A DNA stretch of 64,000 nt, taken from an uncultured Verrucomicrobiota bacterium (lineage in GTDB: Bacteria > Verrucomicrobiota > Verrucomicrobiia > Limisphaerales > UBA8199). The notes under the pieces are model-generated. The model was given only the letters and a program-made list of their open reading frames with translations, had not been told where the DNA came from and searched no databases. A program made the translations under genes and the position numbers. Where the stretch lies: positions 703-64,702 of the forward strand of contig CAZDOO010000023.1 in the NCBI GenBank assembly GCA_964507045.1, given 5' to 3'. Shown here piece by piece: positions 1,667-28,540 of the stretch. Numbering within the stretch: the first letter of the stretch is position 1; each line of letters opens with the position of its first letter.

Positions 1667-1757
1667 GGAGAGATGGCTGAGTGGCTTAAAGCACACGCCT
1701 GGAAAGCGTGAGTGGGCTTATACCCCACCCTGGGTTCGAATCCCAGTCTCTCCGCCA
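1667..1757 (+). tRNA. tRNA-Ser (anticodon GGA), CCA encoded
   Basis: Acceptor GGAGAGA pairs with TCTCTCC. Anticodon stem is CACGC/GCGTG with loop CTGGAAA. A long variable arm (GTGGG..CCCAC) is typical of class II Ser tRNA. T arm is CTGGG-TTCGAAT-CCCAG, followed by discriminator G and CCA. Confidence 0.9.
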
Positions 1758-4534: not shown

Positions 4535-6298
4535 TCAGCAGCCCGCATTCGCCCGTTTCCGGCCCAGCTCCTTCCGGAGCGCCTTCAGCGGCAATGTGTT
4601 CACGACGTCCTCCCGCGTTAGCCAGCCTTTGCGGGCGACGCCGGCGCCCAGGCGCAAGAACCCCGCCTGTTCCGGCCGGTGCGCGTCGCAATTGATTGCG
4701 CACTTCACCCCTTTGGACTTGGCGTAAGGCCACAGGCGCCAGTCCAGGTCGAAGCGCAGCGGGTGGGCGTTGAGTTCGATCCACGTGCCCGTCTCCGCGC
4801 AGGCGTCAATTACCGCCCGCTGGTCCACCGGGTACGGCTCGCGTTCGAGCAGCAACCGCCCGGTCAGGTGGCCGAGGATATGGACGTACGGATTCTGCGC
4901 CGCGCCGATCAAACGCCGGGTTATCTCCGCCTCGGTCTGGTTGAAGCTCGAGTGCAGGCTGGCAATCACCACGTCCAGCTCCGCCAGGAGGTCATTGGGG
5001 AAATCCAGCGAGCCGTCCTTCAGGATGTCCACCTCCGCGCCGGTGAGCAGGCGGAAGTCCGTCCCCTCGTCCGCCAGCCGGGCATTGATCGTCTCGACCT
5101 CCTTGAGTTGCTGCCGCACGCGCTTCGCATCCAAGCCGTTGGCCTGAAAGGACGACTTCGAATGGTCCGTGATCCCCCAGTAAGCCAGCCCGAGTTCGCG
5201 CATCGCTTGGGCGATCTCCTCCGGGCGCTGGTGCCCGTCGCTCCAGGTCGAGTGATTGTGCAGCGAGCCCTTCAAGTCCGTCCACTCGATCAGGCGCGGC
5301 AGCGGGCCCTTCTCGGCTGCCGCAATCTCCCCCCTATCCTCGCGCAGTTCCGGCGGGATGTAGTGCAGGCCGAGCTTCTCGAAGAGCTCCTCCTCCGTGC
5401 GGCACTTCACGAGCAGCTTCGGGTCGCGGGTTTCCTCTGTCGAGCGGAACAATCCGTATTCGTTCAGGCGGAGCCCGCGATCAATCGCCCGCTGGCGCAG
5501 GACGATGTTGTGCTCCTTGTTGCCGGTGAAATACATCAGCGCCGAAGCATATTCCTGGTCACTTACCACCCGCAGGTCGCATTGAATGCCCCCCGCCAGC
5601 AGCACGCTCGCCTTGGTCTCGCCTTTCGCCAGCACCTTCTCAATGCCGGGCTGACGCGTGCAAAAGCCGATGACCTCGGCCGGCGCCTTTGACGACGCCA
5701 GCAGATCAATGTCCCCCACCGTCTCCCGATGCCGCCGCAGGCTGCCGGCCGCGCTGCAGCGGATCACGTCCGGGTGCGAGCGCAACGCCTCCAGCAGCGG
5801 CTCAGCCCGCAGGAGCGCCTCGCTGACCAGATGGCGTGAGGCGTAGGCGCGGCGGCGGTTGATGCCTTCCAGGATGTTCGCCTGCGTCTTGTCGCCGAAG
5901 CCCTTCAGCCCGGCGATGCGGCCCTCCTGGCACGCCCCTTCCAGTTGTTCCACTGACTCGATGCCCAGCTCGTCGTGCAGCGCCTTGACCTTTTTCGGGC
6001 CCAGCCCGGGGATATCCAGCATTGCCACCAACCCGGGCGGCGTCGCGGCCTTGAGCTCTTCGTAGTACCGCAGCTTCCCGGTGGTGACGAGTTCGGCAAT
6101 CTTCTGTTGGAGCGCCTCGCCGATGCCCTTCAGCTCGCCGAGCCGCCCCTCGGCGACCACCTTGTCCAGCGGCTCGCTCAAGGTCTCGATCGTGCGGGCG
6201 GCATTCAGATACGCGCGGGTCTTGAACGGGTTTTCACCCTTCAGCTCCAGCAACGTCGCAATGCCGACCAGCACTTGTGCTACCTGGTCCTTGCTCAT
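4535..6298 (-). CDS. polX: DNA polymerase X family protein with C-terminal PHP phosphoesterase domain
   Basis: 587 aa. N-terminal HhH region is ENPFKTRAYLNAARTIE, pol-beta NTase motif is GSLRRHRETVGDIDLLA, and PHP motif is LHNHSTWSDG. Confidence 0.9.
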   Translation of the reverse strand: MSKDQVAQVLVGIATLLELKGENPFKTRAYLNAARTIETLSEPLDKVVAEGRLGELKGIGEALQQKIAELVTTGKLRYYEELKAATPPGLVAMLDIPGLGPKKVKALHDELGIESVEQLEGACQEGRIAGLKGFGDKTQANILEGINRRRAYASRHLVSEALLRAEPLLEALRSHPDVIRCSAAGSLRRHRETVGDIDLLASSKAPAEVIGFCTRQPGIEKVLAKGETKASVLLAGGIQCDLRVVSDQEYASALMYFTGNKEHNIVLRQRAIDRGLRLNEYGLFRSTEETRDPKLLVKCRTEEELFEKLGLHYIPPELREDRGEIAAAEKGPLPRLIEWTDLKGSLHNHSTWSDGHQRPEEIAQAMRELGLAYWGITDHSKSSFQANGLDAKRVRQQLKEVETINARLADEGTDFRLLTGAEVDILKDGSLDFPNDLLAELDVVIASLHSSFNQTEAEITRRLIGAAQNPYVHILGHLTGRLLLEREPYPVDQRAVIDACAETGTWIELNAHPLRFDLDWRLWPYAKSKGVKCAINCDAHRPEQAGFLRLGAGVARKGWLTREDVVNTLPLKALRKELGRKRANAGC

Positions 6299-9667: not shown

Positions 9668-11074
9668 TCATTTCTGCCGGAACTGGTAAACGTGCACCTC
9701 GAACGGGCCAAACCAGTCCGCGAAGCTGCCGTGTTCCGCATCCACTTTCCGCGGCTCCTCGAAGACCACCGTTCCCGCACCTTCACCGTGGACCTTCTGG
9801 GGCAAGCCGCTGAAGCGCACGCGGATCGTGGGGCCCTCCTTCTTGCAGGCCAGCACGTAGATGTCATCCCCCGCCTCGCGCACCAGCCATTCGAGGGCGC
9901 TGGCATCTGCACTGACCGCATCCTGCACGAACTGTCCCGGGGTTGCTGCCTGGCGGTTCTGTTCCTCTTCCTTATTCGCCACCGCGCGCTTTGGAGGAGC
10001 TTCCGCCACAACCTTGAGCTTGAGGTTGGAGTTGGCCGCCAGCAGGGCCGGGAGGATCGGTGACTTCGGCCCGATCTCCTCGAAGAGCGGGCGCATCACG
10101 CGGTCGAAATATGTCCAGTTGAATCCCCGGGGCTTATCCCGCTCGTTGAGCGTCTGCGGCAGACCGCCGCCGAAATAGGTCAGCCCGCGGGCGCCGTTGA
10201 TGATCGCCTCGTAGGCCATGAAGCGCTGCTCCGGAAACGTCGGGAAGCGCAGCGTGCGCCCGGGCTTGACTACGCCCGAGAAGGCGATCTGGAGCGTCAT
10301 CCAGAACGGCTTTTCGCCCGCCACTTGCTTCATCATGCGGGTGAAGTCGCCCACCATGCTCAGCTCATTGTTCTTCTCCTCCGAATGCACTCCGGGCGGA
10401 TAGCTCACCGGATAGATGTCTATGCCGCCGACGTCCCACCCCGCGTCGTAGCGTTTCAGCGAGGCCACAGTTCCGCGCGGCGCCTGCACCAGCCAGATGG
10501 GATGGTCTGGATCGAGTTCGCGGAGGAGCTGTGCCACGTGCGCAACCTGCTGCGGCGTTGATTTCCCGGAGTTATGCGAGTTTCCCCAATCCGGTTCGTC
10601 GGCGCCTTTCCATAGGCCCATGCCGGGGGAGTCCTTGAAGGCGGCAATCACCTTCCGCAGCTTCGCCTCCTGCTTCTGGTCGCCCGGGTCGAAGTTGGAG
10701 AGGTCCCAGCCCAGCCACGGGCAGCAGCGCAGCCCGCCCGCCGCCGCCGCGGCTTGCATCGCCTTCTCCCGCTCGATCGTCTCGCCGTTCCAGGCCGGGC
10801 CGCCAGACCGCATGAACACCACGCCGCAGTCTGCGAACTCCGCGTAGGCCGGCCGGCCGTTGGGGGCCTTGGCGTCCGGCTCCGGCACAATGGTCAAGTT
10901 GAGGGGGAACTTCTTTTGCCCATCCACTACCAGCGCCCCTGCGTCGTCGAACGCGATCTTCGCCGGCTTCGTCAGCGCCTCCGCCGCCCGCGCCGGCGCG
11001 CTCAATCCCGCCGCCAATAGAGCTGCTCCCGTGCATCCGCCCGCCAGCGTTCTGAAGAACTTTGCAGCAATCAC
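9668..11074 (-). CDS. Secreted glycoside-hydrolase-like protein (family not identified)
   Basis: The first 43 codons of track ORF 9668..11203 read through the MITE terminus. In-frame GTG 11074 gives signal peptide MIAAKFFRTLAGGCTGAALLAAGLSAPARA. ADEPDWGN resembles the NEP acid/base motif of clan GH-A TIM barrels. Confidence 0.55.
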   Translation of the reverse strand: MIAAKFFRTLAGGCTGAALLAAGLSAPARAAEALTKPAKIAFDDAGALVVDGQKKFPLNLTIVPEPDAKAPNGRPAYAEFADCGVVFMRSGGPAWNGETIEREKAMQAAAAAGGLRCCPWLGWDLSNFDPGDQKQEAKLRKVIAAFKDSPGMGLWKGADEPDWGNSHNSGKSTPQQVAHVAQLLRELDPDHPIWLVQAPRGTVASLKRYDAGWDVGGIDIYPVSYPPGVHSEEKNNELSMVGDFTRMMKQVAGEKPFWMTLQIAFSGVVKPGRTLRFPTFPEQRFMAYEAIINGARGLTYFGGGLPQTLNERDKPRGFNWTYFDRVMRPLFEEIGPKSPILPALLAANSNLKLKVVAEAPPKRAVANKEEEQNRQAATPGQFVQDAVSADASALEWLVREAGDDIYVLACKKEGPTIRVRFSGLPQKVHGEGAGTVVFEEPRKVDAEHGSFADWFGPFEVHVYQFRQK

Positions 11075-11141
11075 GAGCGCTATCCTTGACGAGACAGATG
11101 CCGGTTCGTCAATGAGAATGTCGTCTGGTGCGCCACGCGAA

Positions 11142-11559
11142 GCGCATCTCACTTTCCCGCAATAAAGCGAGATGCGCCGGTCGTGCGCGGCGCAACCCGA
11201 CACCCCCCCCGGTTGGCCCGGGCTCCCTCCCCATCCTTGCGCCAGCCCCCCTCCGTCTCCTCACCGTATACACACCGTAGCACCTCTCATAATTTATGAG
11301 AGGTGCTACGGTGTGTATACGGTGTGTAGACGGTGAGATAGGCCTGGGTGGAGCGGCATAGGCCCCGGATCGGGAGGTTGCCGGCCTTTTAGGGCCGTTC
11401 GGATCGCGAGCCGACCCCGGCCGTCAAGTGGTGCGGCGCGCAGCTCGGCCTGTAACAAACGCCTATATTCCGGTCGGCCCGGCCAGGAGTTGACCCGGGG
11501 AGCCGACCAGAATGTCGGCGCCCCGACCCTCCCGTTGCAGGAAAGTGAGATGCGCCACG
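11142..11559 (-). mobile_element. MITE-like non-autonomous element, copy 1 (418 bp)
   Basis: Perfect 16-bp TIR: GCGCATCTCACTTTCC at 11142-11157 is the reverse complement of 11540-11555. It is flanked by direct CCACGCGAA at 11133-11141 and 11560-11568. It aligns over its whole length, in reverse complement, with 25295-25710. No credible ORF inside. Confidence 0.75.
11262..11324. repeat. Perfect 63-nt palindrome (31-bp arms, 1-nt centre) at the core of MITE copy 1
   Basis: I paired the arms base by base: 11262-11292 pair with 11294-11324 around T11293. The inner 15 bp (TAGCACCTCTCATAA) are identical to copy 2. Confidence 0.9.
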
Positions 11560-11702
11560 CCACGCGAACCCCTGCCTTGCCGGATAGGTGAGTGAGGCAA
11601 CCCGCGTTGAGATTGGCGGGTGCGCGCAAATGAACTTTCGGGCGGGCTGCCCGGCAGACGCGGCTTGGCAGGCGGGCGTCCTTTTTGTAGTAACCAGCAG
11701 GA

Positions 11703-12477: not shown

Positions 12478-13293
12478 TTATTCACGGGCCAGCGATCCAA
12501 ACAGCCGCAGGAAGTTGGCCTCCACCCGCTCCGCCAGCGCCTCCGTCGGCTCGCCGAACAATTCCGCCGCGAATTGATAAACCGCCCGAAGATTGGCCGG
12601 GTGGTTGATTGCTTTGCCGGTCTGCGCATCCGTGAGCGGATAGCGGTTAAGCTCGTCAGGCAAGAGCTGGTCCGGCGCGTCGGTCTCGATCAGCAGGCGG
12701 CTGGCCGGCACACACTTAAAGGCTTCGCGCTGGCGCGCCTTGCGCTCGTGCGCGAAGTAACCCGGCAGTGAGAAAAAGGCGCCCAACTCGGCCAGCGGTG
12801 TGATCATTTCCCGTGGACCGCCATAGGAATGGAGCACAAAACCGCAGCGTGGCCGCGGCTCCGCGCGCAGGATTTCCAGCAGCCGGCCCCAGGCCTGCAG
12901 ACAATGAATGCTGAGCGGAAGGTTGCGCTCCGCCGCCAGCCGCAGTTGCCAGATGAATGCCGGCTCCTGTTGCTCGGGGGCGCGGTCTTTGATCCAGCGA
13001 TCCAGGCCCGCCTCTCCAATCGCGGATGGGACTGCGTTCAAGTGCCGCACGAGCGCAACCTGCCAGTCCGGCGACCGCTCCTTCACATACCAGGGGTGAC
13101 AGCCGAAGGAGGGAATAACCTGGGGGCACTCGCGGGCCAGTGCCAGCACTTCCGGCCAATCAGCCTCGCAGGAACCGTTGACCACCATCCAGGCCACGCC
13201 CTCGCGCCGCACCGCCCTCAGGACGGCCTCGCGGCAGGGGGCAAGCCGTTCGTCGTGCAGATGGTTATGCGCGTCGCAGAGCCGATAGGTCAT
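12478..13293 (-). CDS. TatD-family metal-dependent hydrolase
   Basis: Only the C-terminal 271 codons of track ORF 12478..14649 look coding. ATG 13293 gives MTYRLCDAHNHL (HxH). Other motifs are SIHC, VLHSYGG and ETDAPD. Confidence 0.85.
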   Translation of the reverse strand: MTYRLCDAHNHLHDERLAPCREAVLRAVRREGVAWMVVNGSCEADWPEVLALARECPQVIPSFGCHPWYVKERSPDWQVALVRHLNAVPSAIGEAGLDRWIKDRAPEQQEPAFIWQLRLAAERNLPLSIHCLQAWGRLLEILRAEPRPRCGFVLHSYGGPREMITPLAELGAFFSLPGYFAHERKARQREAFKCVPASRLLIETDAPDQLLPDELNRYPLTDAQTGKAINHPANLRAVYQFAAELFGEPTEALAERVEANFLRLFGSLARE

Positions 13294-13479
13294 CAGGTAG
13301 TCATGGAGGTGGTTCAGTGTCTGACAGATACTACCATATTTGTCCGTTTTGCCACCCCTGAACCGCCTGGTATTCCGCGTAGCGCGATTTGGCCACGGGC
13401 GCGGCATCTGTCGGCTTTCCAAGCCCGGTTCACGCCTGTAGGTTGGGGAGCGATGGCAACACAGCCGATGAAATAACCC

Positions 13480-14997
13480 ATGCCCGCAACCACCGCTTTC
13501 AACAACGAACACTACCTCGAACAACAGAGCGCCGCGATTCTCGAGCGCGTCAACGGCGCCGATCACAAGCTCTACCTGGAGTTCGGCGGCAAATTGCTGC
13601 TCGATTATCATGCGGCGCGGGTGCTGCCCGGTTTTCAGCCCGAGGTTAAAATGCGGCTGCTGCAGCGGCTTCAAGACCGGGCAGAAGTGGTCCTGTGCAT
13701 CTTCGCGGGGGATATCGAGAAGAAGAAGATGCGCGCCGACTTCGGCATTCCTTACGACACCGACGCGCTCAAGACCATTGACGAGGTGCGCGAATGGGGC
13801 ATCACCGTGCGGGCTGTGGTTATTACGCGGTTTGACAATCAGCCCGCGGCGGTTGCTTTCAAGAACAAGCTGGAACGCCGCGGCATTCGCGTCTACACGC
13901 ACCGCGCGACCAAGGGCTACCCCACGAGTGTGGATACGATTGTCAGCGACGAGGGCTACGGCGCCAATCCCTACATCGAGACGGAACGCCCGATCGTGGT
14001 GGTCACCGGGCCGGGACCGGGCAGCGGCAAACTGGCCACCTGCCTGTCGCAGCTTTACCACGAGCATAAAAGGGGGCGCAATGCCAGCTATGCGAAGTTC
14101 GAGACTTTCCCGATCTGGAACCTGCCGTTGAAACATGAGGTAAATGTGGCCTACGAAGCCGCCACAGCCGAACTCAAGGATGTGAACCTCATTGACCATT
14201 TCCATCTGGAGGCCTACGGCCAGCCGGCTATCAACTACAACCGCGACATCGAAGCCTTCCCGCTGGTGCGCCGGATCATCGAGCGCATTACCGGCCGTTC
14301 CTCCTGCTATAAGTCTCCCACGGACATGGGAGTAAACCGCGCCGGATTCGGCATCATGGACGACGCCGCCTGCCGCGCGGCGGCGCGCCAGGAGATTATC
14401 CGGCGATATTTCAACTACGCCTGCGAGTACGCGATGGGGCTGGTGGAACGCGACGCTCTGGAGCGGGTCGAACTGATCATGCGCAACCTGGGTTTGAGCA
14501 CCACCGATCGCAGAGTGGTGGCGCCGGCCCAGGAAGCGGCGCGCCAGGCGCAGACTTGCGGCAAGGGCAGCAACGGCTTCTTCTGCGGCGCGGCCATCGA
14601 ACTGCGGGATGGGCGAATCATCACCGGCAAGAACTCGCCGCTGATGCACGCCGCCTCAAGCCTGGTGCTCAACGCCGCGAAAACCCTCGCCAACATCCCC
14701 GAGGCGATTCACCTGCTGCCGACCAATGTGACCCGGTCGCTCAGCCATTTCAAAACGGATGTGCTCAAGGGCCGGGGCACCAGCCTGGATCTGGAGGAAA
14801 CCCTCATCGCGCTGAGCATTAGCGCCCTGATGAATCCTGCCGCGGAAGCCGCCATCGAGCGCTTGAAAGAACTCAATGGCTGCGACGTTCATCTCACGCA
14901 TATCCCTTCCCCCGGCGACGCTGCCGGGCTGCGCAAGCTGGGCGCCAGCACCACCAGCGAACCGGAGTTCGCCTCGAAACACCTGTTTGCAGGCTGA
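13480..14997 (+). CDS. DUF1846 / UPF0371 family protein (function unknown)
   Basis: 505 aa. Near-collinear motif matches to UPF0371 proteins: KLYLEFGGKLL.D.HAARVLPG, VVVTGPGPGSGKLATCLSQLYHE, YAKFETFPIWNLPL, SPTDMGVN. Confidence 0.9.
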   Translation: MPATTAFNNEHYLEQQSAAILERVNGADHKLYLEFGGKLLLDYHAARVLPGFQPEVKMRLLQRLQDRAEVVLCIFAGDIEKKKMRADFGIPYDTDALKTIDEVREWGITVRAVVITRFDNQPAAVAFKNKLERRGIRVYTHRATKGYPTSVDTIVSDEGYGANPYIETERPIVVVTGPGPGSGKLATCLSQLYHEHKRGRNASYAKFETFPIWNLPLKHEVNVAYEAATAELKDVNLIDHFHLEAYGQPAINYNRDIEAFPLVRRIIERITGRSSCYKSPTDMGVNRAGFGIMDDAACRAAARQEIIRRYFNYACEYAMGLVERDALERVELIMRNLGLSTTDRRVVAPAQEAARQAQTCGKGSNGFFCGAAIELRDGRIITGKNSPLMHAASSLVLNAAKTLANIPEAIHLLPTNVTRSLSHFKTDVLKGRGTSLDLEETLIALSISALMNPAAEAAIERLKELNGCDVHLTHIPSPGDAAGLRKLGASTTSEPEFASKHLFAG

Positions 14998-23973: not shown

Positions 23974-25242
23974 CTATTTGGCTGTGCCCTTCGTATCCGC
24001 GAGCCGCCACTCCGAATCCTGTCGCAGGTAAACCGTCTGCGTCGGGAAGGCAAAGCTGATTCCCTCCGCGTCGAAGCGCCGTTTTAGCTCCAGGTTAAAC
24101 TGCTGGAACCCGAGCGCGTATTCATTGAAATCAGTGGACTTCCACCAATGTACGACCTGGATGTTCAGGGACGAACTCTCGAACTTGTTGAAGCAGATAA
24201 GCAGGTCGGCGGTTTTCGGGTGCGGACGGAGAATCTCGTCCAGGATTTGCACGGCGCGTTCCACACGCTCGGCTGGGGTGTCGTAGGTCAGGCCGATGTT
24301 CAACACCGTCTTGATCTTGGCACGCTTACTCACGTTCACGATGTTGGCGTTGGCGATGGTCCGGTTAGGGATTGTCACAAGGTGCCCGTCGAGGTTCCGC
24401 ACGCGGGTGCTGCGCAGGCCAATGGACTCGACTGTGCCATCCACAGTGTCCAGCTGGATGCGGTCGCCGACGCGGAATGGCTTGTCCGCGAAGATGGCCA
24501 CGGCGCCGAACAGGTTGGACAGGGTGTCCTGGGCGGCCAGGCCGACGGCCAAGCCGCCGATGGACAGGGATGCGAGCAGGCCGGTGACATTCATGCCCAG
24601 GTTCTGGGAAGTCACCAGCACCGCGACCACCAGCACGAAGATCTTCAGGGTCTTCCTGATGATGGGGAACAACTGGTGGTCCACGACGCCTTCCTGGGCC
24701 GCCGCTCGCTGTTGCCACAAGCCGGTCAGCAAGTCCACGAACTTGACCGCAATGTAGGTCAGCGAGCAGGCCACAACGATCTTGAGGCCGTTGGAGATGA
24801 AACGGGAGGTCCATTCCGGCCAGTCGAACAGCCGCAACCCGATGTGCAGAAACACCACGAAGGCGATCACCTTGACCGGTCCCCGGAGCAGTTCCAGGAG
24901 CAAGTCGTCGAGCTGGGTTTCCGTCTTGGCGGCCCAGCGCTTCAACTGTTTCTGGATGACCCAGTCCAACAGCTTCGCCACATAGAACGCCAGCACCACA
25001 TAAACAAGGAAGGACAGGTATTGCCAGACCGGGTTGCCGAACGCCTCCGTGCCCAAGCCGGGCACCCGATCCAGCCCGAAAGTCAGCCAGACGTGGTTGC
25101 CCGCTTTTTCCGCCTTCGCCGGCTCTGCGGCGCCCAGCGGCATCTGCCGCAACGCCAAAGCGGCAGCCGCCAGGCTGGCCCGCCTGCCGATCCAATACTG
25201 TGCCAATCTTATGTCCCGTTTCATGCGGCCATTACTATTCAT
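23974..25242 (-). CDS. Mechanosensitive ion channel (MscS family)
   Basis: ATG 25242 (or 25224). TM helices are followed by FADKPFRVGDRIQLDTVDGTVESIGLRSTRVRNLDGHLVTIPN. The upstream part of track ORF 23974..25491 runs into the MITE. Confidence 0.85.
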   Translation of the reverse strand: MNSNGRMKRDIRLAQYWIGRRASLAAAALALRQMPLGAAEPAKAEKAGNHVWLTFGLDRVPGLGTEAFGNPVWQYLSFLVYVVLAFYVAKLLDWVIQKQLKRWAAKTETQLDDLLLELLRGPVKVIAFVVFLHIGLRLFDWPEWTSRFISNGLKIVVACSLTYIAVKFVDLLTGLWQQRAAAQEGVVDHQLFPIIRKTLKIFVLVVAVLVTSQNLGMNVTGLLASLSIGGLAVGLAAQDTLSNLFGAVAIFADKPFRVGDRIQLDTVDGTVESIGLRSTRVRNLDGHLVTIPNRTIANANIVNVSKRAKIKTVLNIGLTYDTPAERVERAVQILDEILRPHPKTADLLICFNKFESSSLNIQVVHWWKSTDFNEYALGFQQFNLELKRRFDAEGISFAFPTQTVYLRQDSEWRLADTKGTAK

Positions 25243-25294
25243 ACCCGGGCTCGCGGGCAAGTCTCTTGAGGAGCGGGCGACTTGCCTGCTGCCG

Positions 25295-25710
25295 TCGGCG
25301 CAGCTCGCTTTCCTGCCAGGGGAGGGGTGGGGCGCCGGCATTCTGGTCGGCCACCGGGTCAACTCCTGGCCGGGCCGACCGGCATATAGGCGTTTGTTAC
25401 AGGCCGAGCCGCACGCCACACCACTCGAGGGCCGGGTTCGGCTCCCGGTCCGGATGGCCCAAAAGCCCAGTAACATCCCGATCCGGGCCATAATCCGCTC
25501 TCCCCTGGCCTAGCTCACCGTCTCCTCACCGTCACCCCTCCCTAGCACCTCTCATAATTTATGAGAGGTGCTAGGGAGGGGTGACGGTGAGGAGACGGAG
25601 GGGTGACGGTGGGGGGCTGGAGCAGGGGGTCCCGGCCGAACCGGGGGGGTGTCGGGTGGCGCCGCGCAGAAGGGGCGCAGCCCGGCTTGTTACAGGAAAG
25701 TGAGATGCGT
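25295..25710 (+). mobile_element. MITE-like non-autonomous element, copy 2 (416 bp)
   Basis: Degenerate TIRs: 25298-25313 is GCGCAGCTCGCTTTCC, and the reverse complement of 25695-25710 is ACGCATCTCACTTTCC. It is flanked by direct CCTGCTGCCG at 25285-25294 and 25711-25720. It is collinear with the reverse complement of 11142-11559. Confidence 0.75.
25518..25598. repeat. Perfect 81-nt palindrome (40-bp arms, 1-nt centre) at the core of MITE copy 2
   Basis: I paired the arms base by base: 25518-25557 pair with 25559-25598 around T25558. Confidence 0.9.
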
Positions 25711-25756
25711 CCTGCTGCCGCCTCAGCCCATCCGGACTTGAATTCTCGCGCCATCC

Positions 25757-26998
25757 GTGTGTTCTTGGCGGGTGCTCAGAACGCTGCGCAAGGCCGAGTA
25801 TGCGGAATTGGTGACGCTCTTCTTTCTCCAGGGAGCGGCGCTGGGCATGTGGCTGGTACCGCTGAGCACCGTGCTCGATGCGCACGGGTTGCACGCCATC
25901 AAGCCGCTTGCCTTTGCCGCCACGGCGGTGGCGGCGTTCATCTCACCGCTGATTTTTGGCGCCATGGCCGATCGCCATGCTTCGCCGGTGAAAGTGCTGC
26001 GCGGCCTGTCGCTGGCCACGGCCGCCGCCATGGCCCTGGCCAGCACCAGCATCAAGCTGGGGTGGAATCCCTGGCTGGTGCTGGCGCTGATTCAAGTGCA
26101 CGCGCTCTGCTCGGCGCCGACTTTCAGCATTGCCTCGGCGATCATTTTTGCGCGGCTGGCGGATGCCCAGGAGGAGTTCGGACCGATTCGCGCCATGGCA
26201 ACGCTGGGCTGGATGGCCGGGTGCTGGCTGGTCAGCGGGCTGGGCGCGGACACGTCGCCCCTGGCCGGATACAGCGGAGCGGTGATGTGGTGTGTGGGGG
26301 CCGGATTCACATTCTTCCTGCCCGAATTGGAAACGCCTCCGTCTGCCGAGCACCTGACCTGGCACGAGCGCCTGGGGCTGGACGCACTCCGGCTTCTGCG
26401 AAATCCCGACCACCGGGTCGTGTTCATCACCTGCGCCCTGCTCAGCATTCCGCTGTCGGGCTTTTATCCGTATGCGCCGCCGCACCTGCGCGCGCTGGGG
26501 CTGAAGCACACCAGCGCGTGGATGACCCTCGGGCAGGTCTCGGAGATTGTCGCCATGTTCAGCTTGGGCGCGCTGCTGCTGAAGTGGCGGCTGAAATGGA
26601 TGTTTGCCTGCGGGCTGTGCTTTGGCGTGCTACGTTTTGCGCTGAGCGCGATGAACGGCAAGTGGTGGGTGTTAAGCGGGGTGCTGCTGCACGGGTGCTC
26701 GTTTACGCTCGTTCTGGTTACGGCGCAGATTTACCTGGAGCAGCGGGTGGATGCCGCGTGGCGGGCCCGGGCGCAAGCCTTATTCACGTTGATGACGAGT
26801 GGCGTGGGCAACCTGCTGGGCTACCTCGGCACCGGCTGGTGGTTCAGTGCCAACACGCAATCGTCCACGACGCAGTGGTCTGTTTTTTGGGGCGGGCTGG
26901 CGGGCATGGCCGCCCTGGTGATGGCCTACTTTCTCGTCGCCTATCACGGAATAGGCTCGGGATTACTGCGGGCAAAGTCAGACCGGCCGGCGGTCTGA
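25757..26998 (+). CDS. MFS transporter (nucleoside:H+ symporter-like)
   Basis: 413 aa with GTG start. About 12 hydrophobic segments. GAMADR-type loop after TM2. Confidence 0.75.
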   Translation: MCSWRVLRTLRKAEYAELVTLFFLQGAALGMWLVPLSTVLDAHGLHAIKPLAFAATAVAAFISPLIFGAMADRHASPVKVLRGLSLATAAAMALASTSIKLGWNPWLVLALIQVHALCSAPTFSIASAIIFARLADAQEEFGPIRAMATLGWMAGCWLVSGLGADTSPLAGYSGAVMWCVGAGFTFFLPELETPPSAEHLTWHERLGLDALRLLRNPDHRVVFITCALLSIPLSGFYPYAPPHLRALGLKHTSAWMTLGQVSEIVAMFSLGALLLKWRLKWMFACGLCFGVLRFALSAMNGKWWVLSGVLLHGCSFTLVLVTAQIYLEQRVDAAWRARAQALFTLMTSGVGNLLGYLGTGWWFSANTQSSTTQWSVFWGGLAGMAALVMAYFLVAYHGIGSGLLRAKSDRPAV

Positions 26999-27016
26999 AT
27001 CCCGGCCCGCCGCGCC

Positions 27017-28540
27017 TTATTTCTGAATCTTCCGCAAGTCGAAGCCTGGTGGCCGTTCGTAGGCTGGTATCACGGCGGCGACCGAATCCAGGCCAAGATA
27101 ATAGCCGGCGGACTGGTCAGCCTTGCCGACGCATTCGAGGCGCAGGACGTGGGGTCCAGCGGCCAGCGGGCGCACCCCCCAATGGTCGGCCTGCCGTTTG
27201 ATGGCCGAGTCATAGAGGTTTACGACGGCCAGTTCCGCGCCATCGAGGGTCACCCGGTAGATGCCGTAATCGGGAGCGTGAATGAACTTGCCCCATAGAT
27301 GCGCAGTGGCGGCTTTGTCCACTGTGAATGGGATTTCCAACCAGCCTTTATCATCGCCGGGCGTGAAGAACAGTTGTTTGCCCTCTTTGGCCGTGCCCGG
27401 CAGCTCCTGCACCTGAATCGGGTGGTCGGAGTGTCTGGCTGTCGCCACCGCTTTCCAGCCGGTGATCAATTGCAACGTCTGCTCGGCCAGCCGCGCCGGT
27501 CCGGGTGGCAGCGCCGGCCAAGGTTTGTGCGGCTCGGTTTGGTACCAGAACGCGACCGAGGACATGAGATCGTCGCGCTCGATGAATCCGCTGCCCGACT
27601 TATCCGGAAACTCTTGGGAACCCTTGTGTTCGATCTCCACGCGCAGGGATTTCTTGAACGGCACGGGGTCGGGAAGGTGGAAGCGGTAAACCGAGCCGCG
27701 ATTGCCGGGCGCATACCCTTCCCACAGCGGCACGCCGTAGAAGGGGCCGTCATGCGGGCGGAAGCCCCAGCCATCGCAGAAATAGTCCTCCGTGCCCGTG
27801 CCGCGCAGGCGCGGCTCAACTTCGCCATCAATGAAGAAGAAGTCGTCGCCCTCGCCATACCAGCCGCCAGACATGTTCTGGACGCTCTGCACGGTGCCTA
27901 CGTAATGACCACGGCCTTCGAGGTCGGCAAGCAGGTAGTTGCGGCCCATCACGCAGGGATATTCCTGACGGTACATGGCATGGAAGTACGCGGTGCTCTT
28001 CGGCAGCGACTTATACTGCTGCCAGTCGAGGTAGTAGTAGAAGGCGTCGCACCGCTTGTCGCTGTCGTTGGTGACGGTGATGCGGGCCGACTTGCGGAAG
28101 GGCATGGGCCAATAGCAGTTCCGCCCGCGGCCATCCGAGGAGACCTTGATGGGCAGCGAGACGAAGGGTTTGTCCAGCCCGTGGCCGATGCCGAAGAAGT
28201 CGCCAATCGGGCACTCGACGCTGGGGTGCTTCTCGCCGTCCCAGTAAATCCGCAGCGTCATCAGTCGTGAGTAGAACGGCGCCGGGTGCGCGATGGTGTT
28301 CCAGAAATGGGTGATCATGCCCGGGCCTTTCAGGTCCGCCAGCACCAGCGTCGCGCCGGGCTCGATGGGACGCCAGTCATCGTTCCCGTTGCGCCAGTCG
28401 GCGGCGGACGACGAGGCCCGCATCGCCTCGAAGTCTTTCAGTTTCTCCAGCCCCGCGAGCGGGTTGCCGGGTGAGAGTTGCGCCAGTGCCTGCGCGCACA
28501 GACCGAGCGTGAGTCCGAAGGTGAGGAAACGTGTGTTCAT
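27017..28540 (-). CDS. Secreted DUF2961 / GH172-family glycoside hydrolase-like protein
   Basis: ATG 28540 gives signal peptide MNTRFLTFGLTLGLCAQALA. Motifs are GPGMITHFW, RIYWDGE, CYWPMPF and GTGTEDYF. Confidence 0.85.
   Translation of the reverse strand: MNTRFLTFGLTLGLCAQALAQLSPGNPLAGLEKLKDFEAMRASSSAADWRNGNDDWRPIEPGATLVLADLKGPGMITHFWNTIAHPAPFYSRLMTLRIYWDGEKHPSVECPIGDFFGIGHGLDKPFVSLPIKVSSDGRGRNCYWPMPFRKSARITVTNDSDKRCDAFYYYLDWQQYKSLPKSTAYFHAMYRQEYPCVMGRNYLLADLEGRGHYVGTVQSVQNMSGGWYGEGDDFFFIDGEVEPRLRGTGTEDYFCDGWGFRPHDGPFYGVPLWEGYAPGNRGSVYRFHLPDPVPFKKSLRVEIEHKGSQEFPDKSGSGFIERDDLMSSVAFWYQTEPHKPWPALPPGPARLAEQTLQLITGWKAVATARHSDHPIQVQELPGTAKEGKQLFFTPGDDKGWLEIPFTVDKAATAHLWGKFIHAPDYGIYRVTLDGAELAVVNLYDSAIKRQADHWGVRPLAAGPHVLRLECVGKADQSAGYYLGLDSVAAVIPAYERPPGFDLRKIQK

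Follow-up and report, generated by a model that had tools for sequence, protein, structure and literature searches.

The segment at 11142-11557 of the window (the whole 64,000-nt stretch of DNA analyzed here) is very likely a member of a non-autonomous DNA transposon family (MITEs) residing in the host chromosome. The MITE-like reading proposed in the first-pass annotation was supported by terminal inverted repeats, copy-specific flanking duplications of 9-11 nt, the non-coding nature of the sequence, and the presence of many copies. We infer mobility from these insertion scars and not from observed movement. The family has no sequence match to the known MITEs with which it was compared; the kind of element itself is well known. 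Its unusual points are limited to a compensated, helically phased palindrome and a lone relative in a MAG of another phylum, and it is otherwise a MITE of the ordinary kind.

Boundaries, copies and insertion scars

The copy under study, hereafter referred to as copy 1, comprises the following features:

11142-11557, + strand: copy 1 of the putative MITE, whole element, ~416 bp, delimited by copy comparison and metagenome depth
11142-11162, + strand: left terminal inverted repeat, perfect over 16 nt (11142-11157) and extending to 21 nt when one mismatch is allowed
11535-11555, - strand: right terminal inverted repeat, perfect over 16 nt (11540-11555) and extending to 21 nt when one mismatch is allowed
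11131-11141, no strand: left copy of the flanking direct repeat (putative target-site duplication) CGCCACGCGAA, exact 11-nt repeat
11558-11568, no strand: right copy of the flanking direct repeat CGCCACGCGAA, exact 11-nt repeat
11164-11177, - strand: internal inverted copy of the terminal repeat (16-mer match at 11162-11177), 6 nt inside the left terminus
11253-11333, no strand: central palindrome, 81 nt, with 40-nt arms (95% complementary) and a single central base
11427-11500, + strand: most conserved segment of the family (GGCCTGTAACAAACGCCTATAT...GGAGTTGACCCGG), near-invariant in three copies

Perfect 16-nt terminal inverted repeats had been claimed for this element, and GCGCATCTCACTTTCC at 11142-11157 is indeed the exact reverse complement of 11540-11555. 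The terminal repeat is given as GGGCGCATCTCACTTTCC, and the repeats are kept in copy 2, L010, L021, and L027 (listed below). With up to three mismatches allowed, the left terminal 16-mer matched the window five times against 0.77 expected, a count reached in none of 100 shuffles, and the extra matches corresponded to the internal inverted copy (11162-11177) and to both ends of copy 2 (~25.3-25.7 kb). Among the other retrieved loci, beyond the copies named, the terminal repeat was absent. The fold-back described for the left terminus was confirmed as well, with 11142-11155 pairing with 11164-11177 (14 nt, 93% complementary). Compared with the right end, the internal copy shows an 85% match, and the fold-back is partly kept elsewhere (11/14 in L010 and 9/14 in copy 2, by alignment count).

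The proposed size of ~418 bp was borne out by the family boundaries, which give 416-418 bp, and metagenome depth over copy 1 rises at ~11140-11142 and falls exactly after 11557. A length of ~416 bp, together with ~410-416 bp in the other full copies, lies at the large end for bacterial MITEs, which measure tens to a few hundred bp and thus stay well below the size of an IS. Judging from the letters at the termini, the left end of copy 1 may start at 11140: most copies carry GG before GCGCATC (three of the four left ends read GG before (G/A)CGCATC), and copy 1 carries AA. The 9-bp direct repeat reported earlier, CCACGCGAA, was present at both sites, but it forms only the inner 9 nt of an 11-nt repeat, CGCCACGCGAA. 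The left CGCCACGCGAA abuts the terminal repeat, and the right one is separated from it by CA (11556-11557).

Further copies were recovered both inside and outside the window:

25285-25720, - strand: copy 2, inverted, including its flanking repeats (element 25295-25710), 82% identical to copy 1 over 415 nt (blastn, match ~25297-25709)
25711-25720 and 25285-25294: flanking direct repeat of copy 2, CGGCAGCAGG (element strand), 10 nt
L010:989-1396: third copy, full, on a JGI metagenome contig, 83-85% identical to both window copies, with the 9-nt repeat CGACCGCAC
L027:6141-6170: fourth copy, start only, ~1.4 kb beyond the right end of the window, where the public contig ends 29 nt into the element
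L021:157-472: left-truncated copy, reached via a spurious ORF in the protein collection
L020:1-155: partial copy, reached via a spurious ORF in the protein collection

The third copy was found with a degenerate 21-mer from the best-conserved segment, which led to five JGI metagenome loci, only L010 being a true copy. Copy 1 is 82-85% identical to copy 2 and L010 over the full length. This likeness ends at the terminal repeats, beyond which each full copy carries its own direct repeat, and the duplications differ from copy to copy (CGCCACGCGAA, 11 nt, in copy 1; CGGCAGCAGG, 10 nt, in copy 2; CGACCGCAC, 9 nt, in L010). The chance of a flanking repeat of at least 9 nt was estimated from 200,000 random site pairs in the window, matched to the real copies in spacing and offset tolerance (p = 5.6e-4 per site). 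Given that such repeats occur at all three full copies, each at this probability, they are therefore not due to chance.

The flanking repeat is separated from the GCGC...GCGC core by 0-2 bases at the left end and by 2-3 bases at the right end. A 9-bp duplication with two variable terminal bases per end fits the three full copies at 9/9, 8/9, and 9/9, and no single duplication length was found that fits all three without mismatch; the duplication is therefore stated as 9-11 nt. Read from the sequence, the duplication can be delimited only to within this range, and the outermost 1-3 bases of the element are likewise ambiguous. Moreover, metagenome contigs contained internal-replacement variants, in which 11389-11522 was replaced by 25 nt or 11446-11502 by 14 nt.

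Genomic setting, copy number and coding capacity

The copies with known neighbors are placed as follows:

Copy 1: between the 468-aa gene (- strand, start GTG 11074, without a Pfam family) and tcdA (+ strand, ThiF family)
Copy 2: between an MscS-type channel gene (- strand) and a nucleoside:H+ symporter gene (+ strand)
L010 copy: 3' of a LuxR-type response-regulator gene, at a distance of 44 bp
Fourth copy (L027): immediately 3' of a histidine-kinase gene, starting right behind its stop codon

The placement of copy 1 in the divergent gap upstream of tcdA agreed with the first-pass annotation, but the label "glycosidase-like" given there to the 468-aa gene was unsupported, as the protein has no Pfam family; read from GTG 11074, it looks secreted, its N-terminus being hydrophobic and, by eye, signal-peptide-like. 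An insertion at this point would push apart whatever promoters stood in the gap between the two genes. The genes flanking the different copies are unrelated to each other, and copies occur in divergent gaps and also 3' of genes. The insertions are therefore intergenic and not restricted to promoter gaps. A Pfam survey of the ~46 ORFs of the window identified ordinary chromosomal genes, including pheS/pheT, rplL20, trpA, coaX, birA, nadC, nadE, and a PolX. The nearest named homologues of tcdA belong to Verrucomicrobiota MAGs, and metagenomes holding k-mers of the element came from wastewater, activated sludge, sediment, freshwater, wetland, and soil. The host is an uncultured bacterium, abundant in runs from wastewater, sludge, and sediment, and probably a member of Verrucomicrobiota.

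We further compared the tcdA loci of relatives (L022-L026, 81-85% protein identity), which showed no similarity to the element; L023 was uninformative, with only 17 nt of upstream sequence, leaving four of four informative loci without it. DNA similarity upstream of tcdA in these relatives starts only at window position 11651. In L024 and L025, the upstream neighbor is nadE at a distance of 103 bp, and the 468-aa gene and the element are both missing, which shows that the control region of tcdA does not include the element as a conserved component. The closest tcdA relative stands at 93%, and one at 87% has a different upstream gene. As the neighboring gene differs, the site in the relatives is not strictly orthologous and is not a true empty site. 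The first-pass annotation had set against the insertion an ancient conserved region, to be recognized by the lack of further copies and by relatives carrying the sequence without duplications; neither pattern was found, as further copies exist and the informative relatives do not carry the sequence.

The search for empty sites within the population yielded no contig joining the flanks of copy 1 (eight DNA runs) or copy 2 (four DNA runs), and a record look-up for the symporter adjoining copy 2 returned no match. A strain variant ~3% different still carries copy 2, and both window insertions were present in all metagenomes examined. The copies diverge from each other by 15-18%. This divergence, together with the insertions in every examined metagenome, suggests that the family is old and that the window copies are probably immobile now; both insertions look fixed.

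Copy number was assessed by aligning Logan contigs of eleven runs, eight of which are DNA metagenomes, to the copy 1 locus. Relative to the flanks (depth ~15 in X6, ~20-25 in X1, and ~5 in X9), depth over the ends of the element was ~10-20-fold in X6 and X1 and up to ~30-fold in X9, and depth over the most conserved 16 nt (11446-11461) was ~90-fold in each of the three. Contigs of X6 leave the element at the left end (at least 11) and at the right end (at least 10), running into mutually unlike sequence, and the flank-bearing contigs among those listed have a depth of ~10-16, similar to the copy 1 flanks and equal to single-genome depth. We read these values as ~10-20 copies per genome with at least 80% similarity to copy 1, and up to ~90 elements with the conserved segment, in depths that may include other organisms of the sample. 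The multi-copy nature of the element is thus seen in the two copies of the window, the one ~1.4 kb outside it, and the raised metagenome depth. All seven public contigs encoding the identical tcdA protein (7/7) are 100% identical to the window, and all begin at 11469, inside the element. Contig breaks are the normal behavior of assemblers at repeats, and tens to ~90 copies explain why public short-read assemblies break at the element sites.

The element had been described as devoid of credible coding sequence, and six-frame translation of three copies accordingly revealed no frame that was both open and conserved. Stops and indels differ between the copies, and the open stretches shift frame, as expected of G+C-rich sequence. 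When two frames of the element were translated and compared with 5.8 billion proteins, only three matches were obtained, all partial to the query and without family annotation; one was a protein-only record (P0121), and the other two led to the copies in L021 and L020. Rfam at curated thresholds detected only one tRNA in the whole window, and at permissive thresholds the element gave just generic matches of the central hairpin to microRNA precursor models, far below the cut-offs. Scans for sigma-70-type promoters and intrinsic terminators found none inside copy 1 or copy 2, and no sigma-54 site was seen by eye at the right end of the element. In a wastewater metatranscriptome, we detected low-depth fragments of the hairpin core and the conserved right segment, on contigs that are strandless and may include DNA carry-over.

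No transposase domain was found among the window ORFs (Pfam), in agreement with the statement that the window lacks a transposase. Searches for an autonomous parent, with the same ends and a transposase, found none in the window, the plasmid collection, two genome scans, or one metagenome scan. Blastn of the element against 72,556 plasmids gave no match, an exact 20-mer of the conserved segment was found in none of 185,579 species genomes, and two scans of viral contigs gave none. The two whole-collection genome scans and the metagenome scan gave only L010 and the hairpin-only locus L017. A full-text literature search with strings of the terminal repeat and the hairpin returned one irrelevant primer match.

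The central palindrome and rival explanations

The most distinctive part of the element, not remarked on in the first-pass annotation, is its central palindrome. The core of the palindrome, TAGCACCTCTCATAA-W-TTATGAGAGGTGCTA, is invariant in five sequences, and the consensus fold places a 39-bp stem here; the whole element, folded as single-stranded DNA, reaches -132 kcal/mol (z = -11.5 vs shuffles). The arms vary between copies yet stay complementary. In an alignment of five sequences with 46 symmetric pairs, 88% of cells pair and 11/46 pairs have changed on both sides, values matched or exceeded by 0-1 of 500 shuffles, and sliding the partner by 1-3 columns lowers pairing to 39-54%. At the loose ends, the consensus of the other copies reads CCGTTACCCCTCCC on the left, matched by GGGAGGGGTAACGG on the right, and CCGTCACCCCTCCC on the left, matched by GGGAGGGGTGACGG on the right. 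The arms consist of 11-nt phased units (e.g., CTCCGTCTCCT / CACCGTATACA / CACCGTAGCAC), in which CCGT (left arm) or ACGG (right arm) returns with an 11-nt period, and the palindrome of L021 has one extra 11-nt unit.

L017, a contig from a MAG labelled Candidatus Acidoferrum (Acidobacteriota), contains a 37-nt stretch identical to the copy 1 core. There, the core lies within a palindrome with 54-nt arms, also built of 11-nt tandem units, between an unassigned gene and recF; the rest of the element is absent. Two further species-genome matches to the hairpin core (L018 and L019) were rejected as plain low-GC terminators matching by chance. The palindrome is most likely either a single-stranded nucleic-acid hairpin or a symmetric array of phased protein-binding sites, and its upkeep could alternatively be due to template switching from arm to arm.

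A composite origin would have a MITE backbone carrying the 81-nt palindrome as a separately evolving module with its own function or spread, so that the element would transport a protein-binding or hairpin signal instead of being inert selfish DNA. The isolated core in L017 is consistent with this, as are the pairing kept by double changes, the phased units of the arms, and an excess of depth over the core, which reached 1206 in X10 vs ~60-110 over the rest of the element and was several-fold in some runs. However, L017 is the single hairpin-only relative found, and MAG binning can err; the palindrome aligns on both strands, which inflates its depth; and template switching between the arms in replication or repair can keep the symmetry without any function, while no binding protein or transcript is known. 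We consider a composite element rather unlikely. The palindrome may further be taken as the functional module itself, with a 31-37-nt invariant core and mirror-image 11-nt arrays (one helical turn) acting as a phased protein-binding array or single-strand hairpin signal, kept paired by selection, common to Verrucomicrobiota and the Acidobacteriota MAG, and spread by the carrier MITE; we regard this more specific proposal as improbable.

Two readings without a MITE appear far less probable still. A palindromic repeat of the REP/REPIN type, mobilized by a tyrosine transposase (RAYT) in place of a DDE enzyme, is suggested by GTAG, which stands at the base of the central hairpin both in copy 1 and in L017, and GTAG-tagged palindromes have been reported in the PVC superphylum, including Opitutus terrae (PMC3733652). 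Against it, CTAG stands in place of GTAG in copy 2, L010, and L021, no RAYT gene occurs in the window, and what repeats is the entire 416-bp element, bounded by terminal inverted repeats and flanked by duplications. REPs and REPINs have a conserved GTAG or CGTC tag at the base of a 20-40-nt palindrome, are much shorter than this element, and are not accompanied by a duplication; this origin is highly implausible. Equally hard to credit is a conserved regulatory region or a family of non-coding RNA genes duplicated together with its loci and not inserted by transposition. The folding far above that of shuffles (as DNA), the location of both window copies in divergent promoter gaps, and the low-depth fragments in the metatranscriptome would fit such a region, but it is largely refuted by the duplication specific to each copy. 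Moreover, the neighbors of the copies are unrelated, two copies (L010 and the one outside the window) are located 3' of a gene, the tcdA loci of four relatives with upstream sequence lack the element, no Rfam family was assigned, and neither window copy contains a sigma-70-like promoter or terminator. An IS200/IS605-derived palindrome (PATE) or a guide-RNA relic does not agree with the element, given the terminal inverted repeats and duplications and the lack of an Rfam family at threshold. Such relics have subterminal hairpins without terminal inverted repeats or duplication, and the described RNA families are in Rfam.

Mechanism and relation to known elements

For the MITE that we favor, several IS families are known to give duplications of 8-12 bp. 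The terminal repeats would be recognized in trans by a transposase whose gene lies elsewhere in the genome, most likely the DDE enzyme of an IS with matching ends (PMC6382973, PMC10969869). The element would have inserted at staggered cuts ~9-11 nt apart, the repair of which would make the duplication. The third terminal-repeat sequence, located internally next to the left end, may serve as an additional binding site.

The closest parallel in form is MITEAba12 of Acinetobacter baumannii, a non-coding element with 16-nt terminal inverted repeats, a 9-bp target-site duplication, and multiple copies per genome (PMC6382973). MITEAba12 is 113 bp long with 78% A+T, has ISAba12 as its parent, is presumed to be moved in trans by a co-resident IS, and has been seen to transpose (PMC6382973). 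The present element resembles it in being non-coding and multi-copy, with 16-nt terminal repeats and a duplication of 9-11 nt. In contrast, it shares no sequence similarity with MITEAba12, and it is longer (~416 bp) and G+C-rich, has more copies, and contains a long palindrome in its interior.

Correia (NEMIS) elements of Neisseria are an abundant intergenic MITE with >120 copies in N. gonorrhoeae; their transcript hairpins are cut by RNase III, and they can carry promoters and an IHF site (PMC10969869). They are similar to the present element in being abundant and intergenic, and they may offer a plausible model for the 39-bp stem if it were transcribed. However, the sequences are unrelated, Correia elements are shorter, and their hairpin arises from the terminal repeats and not from a separate central palindrome. 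The present element yielded no promoter-like site. Correia elements are known to duplicate only TA. REP and REPIN sequences are likewise multi-copy extragenic palindromes, and the GTAG of their tagged class also opens the central hairpin in copy 1; however, GTAG is not conserved among the copies, and the present unit, with terminal repeats and duplications, is about ten times longer than a REP.

MITEs are the least studied prokaryotic mobile elements. A 2024 review of MITEs does not mention Verrucomicrobia (PMC10969869). The understanding of transposition itself is unchanged by the present element. The family provides a ready marker for strain typing and for tracing the responsible transposase, and its compensated, 11-nt-phased palindrome offers a clean, small case for weighing function against arm-to-arm repair as the keeper of long palindromes in mobile DNA. 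In addition, the copies explain the false N-terminal extensions that gene callers produce beside them; as the first-pass annotation had pointed out, the ORF at 9668..11203 runs into the element.

Additional copies and sub-types of the MITE family

A further copy of the MITE starts ~1.4 kb past the right end of the window, at 6141-6170 of the public contig L027, where a PAS/HisKA histidine-kinase gene ends in a TAG codon and the element follows directly; the contig reaches its end 29 nt inside this copy. Together with the two window copies, this gives three copies in ~65.5 kb of chromosome. Among contigs from the public sequencing runs X6, X1, X2, X9 and X30 (both variants taken together), family members were seen in which 132 nt (window 11389-11522) are exchanged for a 25-nt stretch or 55 nt (window 11446-11502) for a 14-nt stretch, and these internal replacements indicate that the family has internally rearranged sub-types. 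At locus L021, the absent left part of a truncated copy is replaced by a palindromic repeat unlike the MITE (1-130; CTGAACCC...CACGTAGCGGCGTC ... GACGCCGCTACG...GAGTTCAGGGGTTCA), which looks like a GTAG-tagged REP-like element that entered the MITE by insertion or recombined with it.

The hairpin core in a contig labelled Candidatus Acidoferrum

A related palindrome was observed on L017, a contig binned into a MAG that bears the label Candidatus Acidoferrum (Acidobacteriota):

L017 3166-3274, palindrome with 54-nt arms, flanked by a 745-aa ORF and recF

Over its middle 37 nt this palindrome matches the hairpin core of copy 1 exactly, and 11-nt tandem units likewise occur in its arms; the MITE parts other than this core are absent from L017. 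Either the module has been shared horizontally or the contig was mis-binned.

Gene models and the flanks of the two copies

Several ORFs begin within or cross copy 2, with start codons such as ATG 25491 and GTG 25603 lying inside the element:

23974-25491, minus strand, ORF
25034-25513, plus strand, ORF
25603-27201, plus strand, ORF
25757-26998, true extent of the symporter gene adjoining copy 2

These three ORFs are artefactual extensions or spurious ORFs, and they parallel ORF 9668..11203 at copy 1, whose false extension by the MITE was noted in the first-pass annotation. The 723-aa ORF at 12478-14649 (minus strand) was also rejected as an artefact; its remainder overlaps a DUF1846 gene on the plus strand, and its sole genuine portion is the 3' part:

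12478-13296, minus strand, TatD-family gene

The 468-aa gene left of copy 1 (9668-11074, minus strand) had been labelled glycosidase-like, a description not borne out by Pfam, in which it matched no family. By eye, the N-terminus of its product resembles a signal peptide. The gene is absent from the tcdA loci of two relatives (L024 and L025), where nadE and tcdA are 103 bp apart, and it may therefore be a lineage-specific acquisition adjoining the MITE. To the right of copy 1, DNA conservation with relatives whose tcdA is 81-85% identical covers ~50 bp just upstream of tcdA (11651-11702; GCGGCTTGGCAGGCGGGCGTCCTTTTTGTAGTAACCAGCAGGAATGCAGCC), and nothing further upstream is conserved in them. 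This stretch probably serves as tcdA's own promoter or leader. Within it, a small stem is followed by a T-run (11663-11677).

A tRNA gene in the window

Rfam at the curated threshold matched a single family in the window:

1667-1754, plus strand, tRNA gene (88 nt)

Its length is sufficient for a long variable arm.
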